A stretch of DNA of 64,000 nt, from contig OZ257142.1 in assembly GCA_965279035.1 (NCBI GenBank), forward strand, positions 736,001 to 800,000, given 5' to 3'. The position numbers and the translations under genes were made by a program. Shown here one piece after another: positions 751 to 10,350 of the stretch; within the stretch, counting starts at the first letter, position 1, and each line of letters starts with the position of its first letter. A model generated the notes under the pieces. The model saw only the letters and a list, made by a program, of their open reading frames with translations. It made no database searches and had not been told where the DNA came from. This DNA is from Bacteroidia bacterium (lineage in GTDB: Bacteria > Bacteroidota > Bacteroidia > M30B66).

Positions 751-1536
751 TTATAAATCAGCAGCTTGAGCAATTAATTCAGCAATATCTAGAACACTAA
801 CGCTTGCCTCTTTTTCAGCATGTTTCACACCGTCGGTCATCATCGTATTGCAAAATGGACAACCAACAGCTATAATTGATGATTGAGTAGCAAGTGCCTC
901 TTCGGATCGTTCTATATTGACTTCTTTGTTTCCTGGTTCAGCTTCTTTGAACATTTGTCCACCACCTGCACCACAACACAATCCTTTTGTTTTACAACGT
1001 TTCATCTCCACCAATTCGGCATCGAGTTTCCCGAGTACCTCACGTGGAGCTTCGTATTCTCCGTTTGCGCGACCTAAATAACAAGGATCGTGAAACGTAA
1101 TTTTCTTCCCCTTGAACGAACCGCCTTCTACTTTCAAACGTCCATCTTTCATCAAACTCTCGATCAATTGAGAATGATGCACCACATCGTAATGACCTCC
1201 TAATTCAGGATACTCGTTTTTAAGTGTATTGAAACAATGCGGACAAGCTGTTACAATCTGCTTCACTTCATAACCATTCAAAACAGCGATATTTTGCATA
1301 GCCTGCATCTGAAACAGAAATTCGTTTCCAGCACGTTTAGCCGGATCGCCTGTACAGCTTTCTTCTGAGCCAAGTACAGCAAATTTCACATCGGCTGCTT
1401 GAAGCAATTTCGCTACAGCTTTAGTTACTTTTTTTGCACGGTCATCAAAACTACCAGCACAACCAACCCAGAATAAAATTTCAGGAACCTCACCATTTGC
1501 AAGGTATTGTGCCATCGTCTTTACATTTAATTCCAT
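751..1536 (-). CDS. CCG-domain (Fe-S)-binding protein (HdrB/GlcF/FadF C-terminal-like)
   Basis: FWVGCAGS, ESCTGD, TACPHC, HDPCYLGR, CCGAGGG and GCPFC motifs, consistent with two cysteine-rich CCG domains. Confidence 0.9.
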   Translation of the reverse strand: MELNVKTMAQYLANGEVPEILFWVGCAGSFDDRAKKVTKAVAKLLQAADVKFAVLGSEESCTGDPAKRAGNEFLFQMQAMQNIAVLNGYEVKQIVTACPHCFNTLKNEYPELGGHYDVVHHSQLIESLMKDGRLKVEGGSFKGKKITFHDPCYLGRANGEYEAPREVLGKLDAELVEMKRCKTKGLCCGAGGGQMFKEAEPGNKEVNIERSEEALATQSSIIAVGCPFCNTMMTDGVKHAEKEASVSVLDIAELIAQAADL

Positions 1537-1545
1537 GGTGATTTC

Positions 1546-1615
1546 AATTACGAATTAAAAATTACGAATTACGAATTACGAATTACGAATTACGAATTAC
1601 GAATTACGAATTACG
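1546..1615 (+). repeat. Heptamer tandem array (AATTACG)x10
   Basis: AATTACG at 1546, variant AATTAAA at 1553, then 8 perfect copies at 1560-1615. Confidence 0.98.
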
Positions 1616-1635
1616 AATGTATTTGTATTAAATAG

Positions 1636-1992
1636 TTAATTGGGGAGTTTGTTTTTGGTTGTTCGTTGTATAGAGCCAATAATACGAAGAATCTCATCTA
1701 TTTGAAGGAGTAATTCTTCTGAATGTGTTGGTTCAATTGTATTTGAATCTCTTAGTAATCGAATCCAAAATTTAGTTTCTCTCGCTTCTTTATATGCTAT
1801 GCTGATTTTGCTCAAAAAATCTTTTCTCGACTGACCTCCAATAGCTTCTTCCACATTCGCACCAATTGAAGTCCCTGATTTTAGTAGCTGTCGTGATAAA
1901 ATATACTCTTTATTCTTGTGCATTTGCCTTGAAATATTAATGATCTTTAGAGCAAAGTCATAGGTTTTTTGTTGAATCAAATTCTCTTTCAT
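1636..1992 (-). CDS. Four helix bundle protein (TIGR02436 / 23S rRNA-IVS protein family)
   Basis: 118 aa with the family signature QLLKSGTSIGANVEEA..GQSRKDFLSKISIAYKEARETKFWIRLL. Confidence 0.9.
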   Translation of the reverse strand: MKENLIQQKTYDFALKIINISRQMHKNKEYILSRQLLKSGTSIGANVEEAIGGQSRKDFLSKISIAYKEARETKFWIRLLRDSNTIEPTHSEELLLQIDEILRIIGSIQRTTKNKLPN

Positions 1993-2057
1993 AATACTAG
2001 TTTAGGTTAATAGCTATTTTTTAATTTATATAATGTTTTCATTCCCTACTTCACAAT

Positions 2058-2065
2058 CAAATTTA
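2058..2065 (-). promoter_or_regulatory. Candidate Bacteroidota -7 promoter box for the four-helix-bundle gene
   Basis: Minus strand reads TAAATTTG, matching TAnnTTTG, 65 nt upstream of the ATG. No clear -33 TTTG. Confidence 0.45.
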
Positions 2066-2158
2066 TTCATTCCTAATTTCTCATTCGTAATTGACCATTC
2101 GTAATTAGTAATTGATCATTATTGACCATTCGTAATTCGTAATTGACAATTCGTAATT
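2065..2158 (+). repeat. Degenerate heptamer array (NNNNATT, consensus CGTAATT), inverted relative to 1546-1615
   Basis: 13 units: attcatt cctaatt tctcatt CGTAATT gaccatt CGTAATT agtaatt gatcatt [att] gaccatt CGTAATT CGTAATT gacaatt CGTAATT. CGTAATT is the reverse complement of AATTACG. Confidence 0.93.
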
Positions 2159-2163
2159 AATTA

Positions 2164-3477
2164 TCATTCGTCTTTCCAATTCAAACGATCCGATGGAGAA
2201 AACTGCCAAGGAGCACCATTGTTCTCAATATTGGTAAACATTGAACTTAAAGCTGCAGGAGGAGCACTTTCTTCCATCACCAGTTGTCGACGTAAATCAA
2301 TGATAATACTGAGCGGATCAATATTCACCGGACATGCTTCTGTACACGCATTACACGTAGTACATGCCCATAATTCTTCCGGTTGAATATAATCGTGCAA
2401 CAAACTTTTTCCATCTTCCTTGAATTCACCTTTGTTGGCATCGATGTTTTTACTCACTTCTTCCAAACGATCACGTGTTTTCATCATGATCGCTCGTGGA
2501 CTTAACAACTTACCAGTTTGGTTTGCCGGACATTCCGATGTACATCGTCCACACTCAGTACATGTATAAGCATCGAGCAAGCTTTTCCAAGTTAAGTCTT
2601 GAACGTCTTTCGCTCCAAATTTCACTGGTCCATCCAACTCAACAGGAACAGCCGAAGGATCCATCATCAACTTCACTTCATTGGTAACAGCAGCCATATT
2701 GGTAAAACGACCTTTATTTTCGAGGTTGGAATACCAAACATTGGGAAAAGCTAAAATGATATGGAAGTGTTTGGAATAAGGGAGATAATTTAAGAAAGCA
2801 AGAATTCCAAGAATGTGAAACCACCAAGCGCCACGTTCATACGCTATAAGTGAGTGAGTTGACCAAGAGTCGAACAATCCAGTAATAAGCGAACTAACTG
2901 GAAAAGAGCCTGCTTGCATATAATGCTCAGTGGCTTCAGGGCGTAACTGCAAAACTTGATCTGCCGCATTCATAGTTAAAAAGGCAGTCATCAATAAGAC
3001 CTCAATCAGTAAGATTGCATTTGCATCGGATCTCGGCCAACCATTTAACTCGTTTTGACGGAAGCGTTTTATGTAAATAATATTCCTTCGGATGAAGAAG
3101 ATAATTACAGAAACAAGAACACCTAGTGCTAAGAATTCAAACGAACCAATTAGGAAATCATAAAAACCTCCTAAGAGCGGAGCAAATAGTCGATGCGTTC
3201 CGAAAATCCCATCGAGAATTATCTCCAGAACTTCTAAATTGATAATGACAAATCCTGCATAAACCAAAATATGCAATATCCCAGCAACAGGTTTCACAAC
3301 CATTTTACTTTGCCCCAAAGCAACACGTGCCATAAGCTTCCAACGCTCCGGTTTACGGTCGCTACGATCGAGCTTTCTTCCTAAACGAATGTTGCGAATG
3401 ATCTTTCGAACGTTGAATGTAAAAAGCCCTGCACCTGCACTAAATACTAGAAGAAATAATATGTTTGGAAGTCCCAT
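2164..3477 (-). CDS. Membrane-bound 4Fe-4S dicluster oxidoreductase (FadF N-terminal-like)
   Basis: Several TM helices, SKHFH, and two ferredoxin motifs CTECGRCTSECP and CTTCNACTEACP. ATG 3477 preferred over the ORF-track start at 3501. Confidence 0.88.
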   Translation of the reverse strand: MGLPNILFLLVFSAGAGLFTFNVRKIIRNIRLGRKLDRSDRKPERWKLMARVALGQSKMVVKPVAGILHILVYAGFVIINLEVLEIILDGIFGTHRLFAPLLGGFYDFLIGSFEFLALGVLVSVIIFFIRRNIIYIKRFRQNELNGWPRSDANAILLIEVLLMTAFLTMNAADQVLQLRPEATEHYMQAGSFPVSSLITGLFDSWSTHSLIAYERGAWWFHILGILAFLNYLPYSKHFHIILAFPNVWYSNLENKGRFTNMAAVTNEVKLMMDPSAVPVELDGPVKFGAKDVQDLTWKSLLDAYTCTECGRCTSECPANQTGKLLSPRAIMMKTRDRLEEVSKNIDANKGEFKEDGKSLLHDYIQPEELWACTTCNACTEACPVNIDPLSIIIDLRRQLVMEESAPPAALSSMFTNIENNGAPWQFSPSDRLNWKDE

Positions 3478-3531
3478 AAGCGATTCTGGTTGGGTCAACA
3501 AATATAAAGGCAGATGGTTTCCTGCTATTTA

Positions 3532-8392: not shown

Positions 8393-9298
8393 TCACGATT
8401 GTTGGCTTCTCTGACGAAGAAGAATTTTGCGATAATGCAACCACTCATAAGTAATACTGAGACTTAGCAGCATTACAGGCAAGCAAATCAACCAGGAAAT
8501 AGATTCTAAATAAATTGTTCCTGTTTTTCCGAAAGAAATCGTTCCCCAACAGGCAAGACCAAACAAACCAAGTGGAATGGTTCTGTACCACATATACTCA
8601 TAACGGGCTTCAATCCAAGAAGAAACATCACCTTTTTTCACTTGCTTATTTAATTCTTTCGCAACCGTTTCGAGTGCCATATTATACAAACTGTACAAAG
8701 CATAAAAAACCATCATGGGTGGAAAGAATAATACTGCTCCCATCAAGCCTACAATACTCATAAGCAGGAAAGCAGCAATCAAGAAAATAGCCCCAAATAA
8801 TAAACGGAAAAACCGATAGATCGCGAAAGCAAATCCATTTAGTTTGTCTTCACCGGGATAATGTTTTTCAATTAAGTTTTCATACCATTTTCCAATGATA
8901 GCTGCAGGAGAAAAAGTCCATTTAATCGTCTTAGATCGCGTCTTTTTTCTATCGCTTGAGAGGAGCTGAAATAACTTCAGCACATTGTCCATTTCTTTGA
9001 TTAATGGTGATTCTACAATCTTTGGTGGAGGAGGCGGAGGTCTTCTTTCGCGACGAACAATTGGATCAGTTGCTCGATGAGATTCGGGCGAATTAATAAC
9101 GAATTCTGATTTCCTTAGAAGCAATTCGCTCGCTTGTCTGGCAGAAATAAATTGCTTAGAAGCCTGCTCTTGCAAACGCTCATCCCGATGTTTATCTGGA
9201 TGAAATATCTTTGCTTTTGACCTAAAAGCTTTACGCACATCGTCGTGGCTAACAGGCAATTGCAAGTCAAGTATGGCTATAGCTTCTCGTATGGTCAT
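8393..9298 (-). CDS. J-domain (DnaJ) protein with C-terminal TM helices
   Basis: N-terminal AIAILDL...VRKAFRSKAKIFHPDKH with the HPD motif, Pro-rich linker, about 4 hydrophobic segments. Confidence 0.75.
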   Translation of the reverse strand: MTIREAIAILDLQLPVSHDDVRKAFRSKAKIFHPDKHRDERLQEQASKQFISARQASELLLRKSEFVINSPESHRATDPIVRRERRPPPPPPKIVESPLIKEMDNVLKLFQLLSSDRKKTRSKTIKWTFSPAAIIGKWYENLIEKHYPGEDKLNGFAFAIYRFFRLLFGAIFLIAAFLLMSIVGLMGAVLFFPPMMVFYALYSLYNMALETVAKELNKQVKKGDVSSWIEARYEYMWYRTIPLGLFGLACWGTISFGKTGTIYLESISWLICLPVMLLSLSITYEWLHYRKILLRQRSQQS

Positions 9299-9393
9299 CC
9301 TCTAAATAACTCAGTCAAAAGCCAAATTGTTGTATGCGGCTTCTTGCTTTTCTTGCTGCAAATTTACATTACCTTTCGGCATTCTTCTTTTTC

Positions 9394-10350
9394 ATGAAAC
9401 TTACGCCTGCCCGAACACTTGCCGAAATTGCCGATTTAATCCATGCCCGTTTCTACGGAAACCCCGATCATCTAGTTACTGGCATCAATGAAATTCATAA
9501 AGTAGAAGTTGGAGATCTTTCTTTTGTTGATCATCCAAAATACTATGACAAATGTTTGAACTCAGCGGCAACAACCATTCTTATCAATAAAGAAGTCGAT
9601 TGTCCCGATGGCAAAGGTTTACTTTTTAGTGATGATCCGTTTAGAGATTATAATTTTTTAGTCGATTTCTTTCGCCCATTTCAACCCGCTGAAAAATTAG
9701 TAAATACCTCAGCGAAAATTGGCGAAGGAACCATTATTCAACCTGGTGCTTTTGTTGGAAATCATGTGGTGATTGGTCGCGATTGTTTGATTCATCCCAA
9801 CGTGGTAATTTATGACCACTGTGTTTTGGGCGATCGTGTGGTTATTCATGCTGGAACCATTATCGGTGCTGATGCTTTCTACTTTAAACGACGTCCCGAA
9901 GGATATGATAAAATGAAAAGTTGCGGTCGCGTTGTGATTGGCGATGACGTCGAAATTGGCGCTGGTTGTACAATCGATAAAGGCGTTACTGGCGATACCG
10001 TGATTGGTCGTGGAACTAAATTCGACAACCAAATTCATATTGGGCATGATACCGTTGTGGGTGAAGATTGTCTCTTTGCAGCTCAAGTAGGAGTTGCAGG
10101 AGTTGCTACAATAGAAAATAATGTCACCATTTGGGGACAGGTCGGCGTTTCGAAAGATTTAACGATTGGATCGGGAGCAATTATTCTTGCAAAAAGCGGT
10201 GTTGGTAAATCCCTCAAAGGAAATACTACGTACTTTGGAATACCGGTGTCGGAGGCGCGTGAAAAGATGCGCGATCTAGCTAATATCAAACGCATACCTG
10301 ATATTCTCGATACGGTTTACAAACGCACACAGGATAATAAAGAAGATTAA
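9394..10350 (+). CDS. lpxD: UDP-3-O-acyl-glucosamine N-acyltransferase (LpxD family)
   Basis: Hexapeptide repeats, CTIDKG, DNQIHIGHD containing the catalytic His. ATG 9394 chosen as start. Confidence 0.85.
   Translation: MKLTPARTLAEIADLIHARFYGNPDHLVTGINEIHKVEVGDLSFVDHPKYYDKCLNSAATTILINKEVDCPDGKGLLFSDDPFRDYNFLVDFFRPFQPAEKLVNTSAKIGEGTIIQPGAFVGNHVVIGRDCLIHPNVVIYDHCVLGDRVVIHAGTIIGADAFYFKRRPEGYDKMKSCGRVVIGDDVEIGAGCTIDKGVTGDTVIGRGTKFDNQIHIGHDTVVGEDCLFAAQVGVAGVATIENNVTIWGQVGVSKDLTIGSGAIILAKSGVGKSLKGNTTYFGIPVSEAREKMRDLANIKRIPDILDTVYKRTQDNKED

Follow-up and report, generated by a model that had tools for sequence, protein, structure and literature searches.

Inverted heptamer arrays on either side of a four-helix-bundle gene: a candidate selfish cassette in a Bacteroidota operon and its relation to 23S rRNA intervening sequences

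Why should a small gene, wedged between two genes for iron-sulfur (Fe-S) proteins, be bracketed by two arrays of a seven-nucleotide repeat, the one array the reverse complement of the other? The question is raised by a 64,000-nucleotide (nt) stretch of the genome of a Bacteroidia bacterium (GenBank assembly GCA_965279035.1, contig OZ257142.1, positions 736,001 to 800,000), here called the window, in which positions 1546–2158 hold a four-helix-bundle (4HB) gene of 118 amino acids (aa) between arrays of AATTACG-type units. A first-pass annotation proposed that arrays and gene together form an intervening or mobile cassette. Our preferred answer, to which we attach a probability of roughly 0.55, is that 1546–2158 is one copy of a widespread and compact selfish cassette: the mRNA (operon) counterpart of the intervening sequences (IVSs) with an open reading frame (ORF) that interrupt 23S rRNA genes. 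The evidence for this answer comes from the build of the locus, its recurrence in other phyla, the co-variation of its two arms and the spread of related cassettes.

The cassette lies on the minus strand. Read in the sense of the mRNA it begins with the 5′ arm (2044–2158), a degenerate AATTACG-type heptamer array, and continues with an AT-rich leader up to the ATG of the 4HB gene (1993–2043), the 4HB gene itself (1636–1992, PF05635/TIGR02436 by the ORF list and family profile matches), a short spacer after its stop codon (1619–1635) and a nearly perfect 3′ arm, (CGUAAUU)x10.4, at 1546–1618. On the plus strand this last segment is a period-7 array of 10.4 copies with 93% matches (Tandem Repeats Finder (TRF) score 132), nine of its units being exact AATTACG, in agreement with the ten copies first annotated beside the 118-aa gene. 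The reverse-complement array on the other side is equally real, but the 13 CGTAATT-type units credited to it were a generous count: between 2040 and 2165 there are five exact units and two with one mismatch, and the remainder is of an AATxxxx type. One 3-nt phase shift falls inside 2044–2158, and TRF calls in this array are limited to 2128–2158 (4.4 copies). That the arrays exceed chance is evident from the two-unit 14-mer AATTACGAATTACG, which with up to two mismatches occurs 11 times in the 64 kb, every time at the cassette locus, against a mean of 0.69 and a maximum of three in shuffled sequence. The cassette occupies the whole spacer between the two Fe-S genes, from stop to start, leaving the gaps already annotated of 5 nt from the upstream stop and 9 nt to the downstream ATG.

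Can the two arms pair? Folding of the minus-strand RNA of 1530–2170, a check that the first-pass annotation had recommended, joins the two arrays into a long terminal stem with a minimum free energy of −132 kcal/mol (z = −3.09; none of 20 shuffles folded as well). The longest inverted match between the arms spans 68 nt at 72% complementarity, and the best short match 32 nt at 91%. The fold and the 68-nt match thus bear out the stem of up to ~70 bp, looping out the ORF, that had been proposed. Other loci behave similarly: at 16 of the 18 4HB loci tested the duplex predicted by RNAduplex between the 150-nt flanks is better than those of at least 97 of 100 dinucleotide shuffles. Read in the ORF's sense, purines tend to predominate in the 5′ arms, by hand count in about 14 of 19 distinct units (among them GAGGTCG, GGAAAGN, GATGAAG, AGAGGAC and GTAAAAA). 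Some 5′ arms contain Shine-Dalgarno-like GGAG or GAGG, which the stem would sequester.

The architecture recurs across phyla far above background. We compared 28 4HB loci, comprising the window, 22 plasmid loci, three genome loci and two phage contigs (loci are labelled L with a number), from the Bacteroidota, Cyanobacteriota, Bacillota, Spirochaetota, Chloroflexota and Pseudomonadota; 1154 other genes from the same loci served as controls. Plasmid loci were obtained by a tblastn search of 72,556 plasmids with the window protein (31 records, of which 20 were taken) and, for a second 4HB subfamily, with the L042 protein as query (31 further plasmid records, three taken); one paralogous copy, H8, was left out of the count. 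The main measure was the best ungapped inverted match between the 200-nt flanks (+1/−1.5 scoring), with a score of 15 or more taken as strongly inverted. By this measure 20 of the 28 4HB loci have strongly inverted flanks, compared with eight of the 1154 controls (Fisher p = 9e-31); the earlier annotation had suggested a test of TIGR02436 genes for such flanks. Period-7 arrays are present on both sides at 19 of the 28 loci and at 11 of the 1154 controls. A strict rule, which asks for an array score of at least 8 on each side and for consensus units complementary within one mismatch, finds 11 of 25 loci and three of the 1154 controls; because it overlooks arrays that are degenerate or mixed yet obvious on inspection, the ungapped score was preferred. 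Inspected by eye, almost all of the 28 loci have tandem heptamers 5′ of the ORF and the reverse complement 3′ of it. A survey of phages found a 4HB homologue in only two of 50,697 records, both without arrays. According to the annotation tables, the 4HB gene is co-directional with both neighbors at 17 of the 28 loci, antisense to both at five, and mixed or unannotated at six.

The 4HB cassettes of plasmids lie strikingly often inside defence operons. Their neighbors include cas1/cas2 (L004, L007 and L107), hsdS/hsdR (L008), drmD/MmeI (L011), a helicase and methylase (L012 and L106), and DUF1156, DUF499 and Swt1-HEPN (L013, L014 and L108); two cassettes sit antisense between cas2 and cas1. In the hsdS–hsdR spacer of Monoglobus (L008) the 4HB gene, at 1501–1842, has two in-frame stops, is unannotated and has short arms: a decayed cassette.

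If the arms matter as a pair, what happens when the repeat changes? The heptamer differs from cassette to cassette and the two arms stay complementary. Units are TTAGTGA in Bernardetia, ACCAGTG in Euhalothece, TTAGGAA in Monoglobus, GATGAAG and TTTAGAT in Chlorohelix and Gloeocapsa, TGTTGAA and GTGGCAG in metagenome-assembled genomes of Flavobacteriales, and GTAAAAA, AATTCAA, GAGGTCG, CAAGTCG, CAATTCG and TAATTCG in Nostocales. Within one Nostocales subfamily (69–86% protein identity) the 5′ unit is TAATTCG in L105 and L106, CAATTCG in L101, CAAGTCG in L104 and GAGGTCG in L006; at each locus the consensus of the 3′ arm has no mismatch to the complement of the 5′ unit, and three unit positions must therefore have changed on both arms. 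Co-variation was judged from consensus units per arm, since MAFFT misaligned two of the 5′ arms, those of L104 and L106. Between L105 and L106 synonymous divergence is saturated (dS 2.6), and the arms are nonetheless identical. The two arms, then, co-evolve, and complementarity is kept. L105 (Nostoc C052) and L106 (Dolichospermum) also share the AATTACG/CGTAATT pair of the window, with the arms swapped relative to the ORF.

These results bear on the plainest alternative, namely that common intergenic heptamer repeats happen to flank a 4HB gene. Such repeats are certainly common: in 80 Flavobacteriales-type loci collected with the downstream Fe-S protein as query (1.36 Mb in total), 7 is the commonest TRF period (148 of 802 rows), and arrays occupy many spacers of the Fe-S operon that have no 4HB gene. 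Coincidence is nevertheless very improbable given the excess of inverted flanks over controls, the complementarity of arms made of different heptamers, and the absence of the window's 14-mer from every other place in the 64 kb.

Do the cassettes move? In four pairs of loci that are set in unrelated contexts (L105/L106, L006/L104, L101/L105 and L005/L010) DNA homology is confined to arm, ORF and arm; array, ORF and array are thus a unit common to unrelated genomic contexts. Nostoc flagelliforme carries an AATTCAA cassette in four paralogous modules. Across a block of 550 nt, made up of the arms, the ORF and about 20 nt on each side, the four copies show no variable column; their flanks have 83 variable columns of 451 and pairwise identities of 89–95%. 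Within this one genome, then, recent spread has carried the cassette to four paralogous sites that are themselves diverged. The cassette lies inside a helix-turn-helix gene, which it splits with an insertion of 523–524 nt, and it is bounded by a direct repeat of 11–14 nt; this Nostoc insertion has a target duplication of 14–15 bp. Three other Nostoc plasmids have the homologous site without cassette and without heptamers: in L095 and L096 a helix-turn-helix gene of 132 aa stands there intact, and in L097, which is unannotated, a longer stretch is missing. The idea of a unit that spreads without a transposase, advanced for the window locus from its sequence, gains support for related cassettes from the four cassette-limited pairs and the N. 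flagelliforme copies.

No enzyme of mobility accompanies the window cassette. Pfam scans of 52 window ORFs returned no second 4HB gene, transposase, integrase or reverse transcriptase, in keeping with the absence of transposase and integrase first reported for the locus, and no endonuclease domain. No target-site duplication is evident at the ends of the cassette. An Rfam scan of 1300–2400 gave nothing above threshold, no rRNA and no group I or group II ribozyme; its sole match, a snoRNA model over the 3′ arm at 28 bits against a gathering score of 95, is a chance match. A PADLOC search gave no match. Elsewhere the window has the content of an ordinary Bacteroidota chromosome, including type IX secretion tails, LptD_2 and DUF4199.

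What, then, is the protein? The 118-aa product matches PF05635 (23S_rRNA_IVP; E = 1.3e-26, 93.3 bits, cutoff 33.8) and TIGR02436 (E = 1.7e-29, 102.2 bits, cutoff 24) over nearly the full models. Among solved structures the closest relative, by sequence match, is PDB 2RLD chain A (E = 9.3e-25, residues 1–114). It is basic by residue count, and at least 7993 of 8000 scored candidates are homologues with E ≤ 1e-3. Homologues at 70–95% identity to the window protein form 48 distinct 90%-identity clusters, mostly on contigs shorter than ~2.5 kb, as would be expected if assemblies break at the arrays or if copies are many. A domain of the PF05635 type was termed functionally uncharacterized as late as 2024 (PMC11270868). 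The ratio of nonsynonymous to synonymous divergence (dN/dS) of the 4HB ORF is 0.05–0.24 across seven pairs: the 4HB protein is under purifying selection, and is on this account functional rather than a mere spacer. As a guess, it may bind to the arrays or to the stem and favor persistence or spread of the element.

The protein also has a weak similarity to Avd, the accessory protein of diversity-generating retroelements (DGRs), with 30.1 bits to PF22296 (bAvd) and 33.4 bits to NF033474 (Avd), and the locus might on these grounds be regarded as the remnant of such a retroelement. Both scores fall below the curated cutoffs, however (40 and 80 bits, respectively); no reverse-transcriptase family was found among the 52 window ORFs scanned, and the locus has no template/variable repeat pair, its repeats being heptamer arrays only. 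Among the explanations considered here we hold this one to be the least probable.

If the window cassette is an insertion, then related operons should exist without it. Its upstream neighbor (2164–3501, minus strand) encodes a 445-aa membrane protein with a 4Fe-4S dicluster domain (ORF list; Pfam Fer4_8/Fer4_9 and others), and the downstream one (751–1536, minus strand) a 261-aa Fe-S protein with CCG cysteine-rich domains (Pfam CCG, E = 8.8e-31), so that the order on the minus strand is dicluster membrane protein, 4HB protein, CCG protein. In 78 of the 80 Flavobacteriales-type loci the two Fe-S genes lie side by side. Between them is a short spacer of 11–169 nt in 46 loci, a conserved HAD-like gene of ~140 aa in 28, and something else in four; 75 of the 78 operons have no 4HB gene. 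In the closest relative, L015, whose CCG protein is 94% identical and whose upstream protein is 87% identical, the spacer measures 123 nt and contains no 4HB ORF. Orthologous sites without the cassette therefore exist for the window operon, where the first-pass annotation had recommended a search for one, as they do for the Nostoc cassette. The L015 spacer starts with ~26 nt that are homologous to the start of the window 5′ arm; at its other end are TAATTGA units able to form, with these first nucleotides, a weak hairpin of 12 bp (z = −1.4). To judge from its sequence, the spacer looks like a remnant, or like an older hairpin. In the loop of the hairpin (L015, 2115–2175) is a 14-nt (2 × 7) repeat, TTTCCCCTTTCTAC, in 4.4 copies.

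A hidden Markov model scan of all ORFs in the 1.36 Mb found only three 4HB genes (L030, L042 and L047), each directly 5′ of the CCG gene. Their proteins belong to other subfamilies, 25–32% identical to the window protein, and their heptamers are different or lacking. Since all three genes sit at one junction, the junction is a repeated landing place.

Other features of this junction deserve mention. The HAD-like gene (~137–150 aa, motifs DIDGT and GKPRGGNYHW), a third member of the operon in 28 of the 78 loci (L017, L020–L022, L025 and L026 among them), is absent from the window. In L022 it has a direct composite repeat on either side (8590–8760 and 9273–9440), consisting of an (AATAGTA)n array followed by a conserved stretch of ~40 nt that resembles a miniature inverted-repeat transposable element (MITE), and the L022 piece holds many other heptamer arrays. 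The 3′ arm of L030, (TCAACAA)x4 at 9976–10004, seems to enter the CCG gene where it encodes the N terminus; in relatives the TCAACAA motif occurs once, or in 4.4 copies without a 4HB gene (L022 9659–9689; L021 and L025 near 9990). Units of the form ACGAATx recur just 3′ of the upstream gene, whose own 3′ end reads ..ACGAATxA, and TACGAAT arrays are present at four to five further sites in L030. Arrays may, from such sequence likeness, have been seeded from host sequence.

The repeated use of one junction is open to a different reading, in which the module serves the host: a 4HB oligomer would bind the arrays, as DNA or as mRNA, and tune expression of the flanking operon genes, with array length as a slippage-prone switch. 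This would suit a protein under purifying selection, the position of 4HB genes inside operons, often of defence (cas1/cas2, type I restriction-modification, DISARM, DUF1156/DUF499, helicase-methylase), and the presence of three 4HB subfamilies at a single Fe-S junction (four of 81 loci, including the window) and nowhere else in the 1.36 Mb. Heptamer arrays 5′ of start codons have, moreover, been proposed as sites for post-transcriptional regulators in Beggiatoaceae (PMC4679880). But the operons that harbor cassettes are unrelated in function, the Fe-S operon does without a 4HB gene in 75 of 78 orthologous cases, and in one instance the cassette interrupts a host gene. Presence and absence, homology limited to the cassette and recent multi-copy spread are together the pattern of a mobile element, and we consider a host-serving role improbable.

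How might a selfish cassette of this kind be tolerated? A link to 23S rRNA IVSs, drawn in the first-pass annotation from the protein family, has become stronger. On a plasmid of Azospirillum lipoferum (L110) a 23S rRNA gene (Rfam LSU, 613 bits) is interrupted by a 4HB ORF whose arms consist of four (RGAKGAC)-type heptamers and their complement, with a stem of at least 25 bp (z = −9.25). A report on Coxiella describes a 23S IVS with a 28-bp terminal stem that is excised by RNase III in vitro, and two or three tandem GACAGAT heptamers, depending on the strain, before the S23p ORF; as cited there, the IVS has long been proposed to be the relic of a mobile element, its ORF serving mobility (PMC4990558). 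By analogy, the window cassette would be transcribed within the host operon and its arms would pair into a stem of ~60–70 bp, a likely substrate of RNase III. The stem would loop out the 4HB gene and bring the upstream stop and the downstream start within ~14 nt of one another; such processing or looping-out would allow the host to tolerate the insertion, and the exact fit of copies into operon spacers would thereby be accounted for. Identity of the arms might be kept by slippage within the arrays together with templated correction between the inverted arms.

Several observations weigh against this account. The plasmid sample is mostly cyanobacterial and its records were selected by the analyst, and the 28 loci are not independent, six pairs being homologous cassettes. 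Eight of the 28 do not pass the inverted-flank test. Arrays are lacking at L047, L102 and L103; those of L107 (Pseudanabaena) and L109 (Oscillatoria) are long but direct and not inverted (an array of 28-nt period and one of G-rich heptamers); the arms are short at L012 and L042; and L007 has nested arrays on both sides. Nor are inverted heptamer arrays exclusive to 4HB genes. In Flavobacterium, arrays of the AACCTGA/TCAGGTT type flank a non-4HB gene of 160 aa located 3′ of the CCG gene, which supplies three of the eight controls above the inverted-match threshold, a fourth orthologue falling just below. This gene, the single clear non-4HB case, is seen at about 10820–11470 in L070, L072, L089 and L091 (also in L075, L083, L084 and L086), and is a homologue of the window ORF at 228–773, which has no Pfam family. 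Many of the "empty" Fe-S spacers hold ORF-less heptamer hairpins, as in Flavobacterium (L089, 9858–10003, fold z = −3.8) and L092 (9905–10003, z = −2.3); L044, L066 and L016 have hairpin spacers of the same kind. As these hairpins are common at the junction, the arms could predate the gene at the window site, and the ~26 nt of the window 5′ arm in ORF-less L015 point in the same direction.

Further difficulties concern the transcript and the ends. Complementarity over the 68 nt of the window stem is imperfect at 72%. The sense transcript gives the more stable duplex at 12 of the 18 loci and the less stable one at six, and mismatches between arms are divided into 30 of the G-U type and 30 of the A-C type, with no RNA-specific signature. 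Cutting of an mRNA stem by RNase III is put forward by analogy. A target duplication was not seen at five other cassette boundaries examined, so that duplication is not consistent. Given the lack of G-U bias and the 12:6 split, the selected structure could be DNA as well as RNA.

This leads to the alternative that the element acts at the level of DNA only: its arrays would be terminal inverted repeats, or hairpins or cruciforms of single-stranded DNA, recognized by a recombinase or transposase encoded elsewhere, in the manner of MITEs or repetitive extragenic palindromic (REP) sequences, with the RNA stem incidental and the 4HB gene a cargo or helper. Much of the evidence would suit it: the cassette is transferred whole and has lately multiplied, with no enzyme gene of its own, one insertion has a direct target duplication of 14–15 bp, the mismatches are evenly divided, the cassette is antisense to both neighbors at five of 28 loci, and ORF-less inverted arrays occupy the same junction. 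It is harder to square a sequence-specific enzyme with arms whose sequence varies from one cassette to the next, or with five boundaries that lack a duplication. The same build is found in 23S rRNA, where processing is reported to take place at the RNA level (PMC4990558). Finally, the window cassette fills its spacer from stop to start, as by eye do most co-directional cassettes, and this fits selection on the host transcript. We regard an element of DNA alone as unlikely, and continue to favor the IVS-like selfish cassette with arms that pair into a long stem.

A fuller scenario can be sketched, which we advance tentatively and would not expect to hold in its entirety. The 4HB family would be the signature gene of unrecognized autonomous mobile elements with heptamer-array ends and without transposase, integrase or ribozyme. 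Templated copying between the arms would keep them matched; the elements would home into transcribed, hairpin-prone sites (rRNA helices, operon spacers and even coding regions), and would owe their survival to host RNase III, by which they are removed or insulated in the RNA. The folded arms might be the target of an Avd-like oligomer, which could perhaps recruit a reverse transcriptase or repair polymerase in trans, and the single target duplication of 14–15 bp would fit a target-primed copying step. ORF-less hairpins, among them short rRNA IVSs and the convergent array pairs of Xanthomonas, would be decayed or non-autonomous derivatives.

Should the reading of a selfish cassette be correct, a large protein family (the at least 7993 homologues noted above) would gain a concrete context as the core of a hairpin-armed cassette, and ORF-bearing rRNA IVSs, which have been puzzling since the 1990s, would be brought together with elements of ordinary, often defence, operons. 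Recombinase-less spread, complementarity of arms under drift, and mRNA excision as a form of host tolerance would become testable. The arrays would explain odd spacers and split genes in annotation, and they probably cause assembly breaks.

The cassette has points in common with several known systems. It resembles homing elements (group I introns or inteins with homing endonuclease genes) in that an identical element occupies the same position in diverged paralogues and empty alleles are found in relatives; it differs from them in lacking a ribozyme (by Rfam) and an endonuclease domain, in duplicating its target, and in splitting a host gene without evident splicing. Like MITEs, and like REP sequences and bacterial interspersed mosaic element (BIME) hairpins, it is small, has no transposase of its own, has inverted ends that can fold, lies in operon spacers and is present or absent among relatives. 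Unlike them, it has ends that are heptamer arrays varying from cassette to cassette, contains a conserved protein gene, and shows a target duplication in one case only.

Avd of DGRs forms pentamers and binds both nucleic acid and the reverse transcriptase. The 4HB protein belongs to the same fold family and is likewise small and basic, with weak sequence similarity; unlike Avd it scores below the family cutoffs, has no reverse transcriptase among the 52 window ORFs, and has heptamer arrays as its only repeats.

The short tandemly repeated repetitive (STRR) sequences of cyanobacteria are tandem heptamer arrays. Others have been described as TAACTGA arrays in Beggiatoaceae, cyanobacteria and Bacteroidetes (PMC4679880) and as GGGAATC arrays in Xanthomonas, with 70–75 convergent (inverted) pairs, in a paper that also covers Nostoc (PMC4692102). 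The arms share with these an intergenic position, a period of 7, a frequent place beside start codons and the same phyla; they differ in coming as complementary pairs that go with a single gene family. In neither paper do the passages and term counts consulted mention a 4HB or S23 gene between arrays. A full-text literature search, which left subscription journals and database family notes uncovered, gave no paper that ties the 4HB family to inverted heptamer arrays, the exception being the Coxiella IVS report, with its heptamers 5′ of the ORF (PMC4990558).

There remain the 23S IVSs themselves. The window copy differs from them in its place, an mRNA operon spacer between protein genes rather than helix 25 or 45 of the rRNA, and in its arms, tandem arrays of ~70–115 nt as opposed to a 28-bp stem. 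The Coxiella ORF was judged by the authors of that report to be decaying (PMC4990558); the ORFs of the cassettes in our comparison are, by contrast, subject to purifying selection. With the IVSs of Leptospira, Coxiella and L110 the cassette nonetheless shares an S23p/PF05635 protein, complementary arms around the ORF, and heptamers within those arms.

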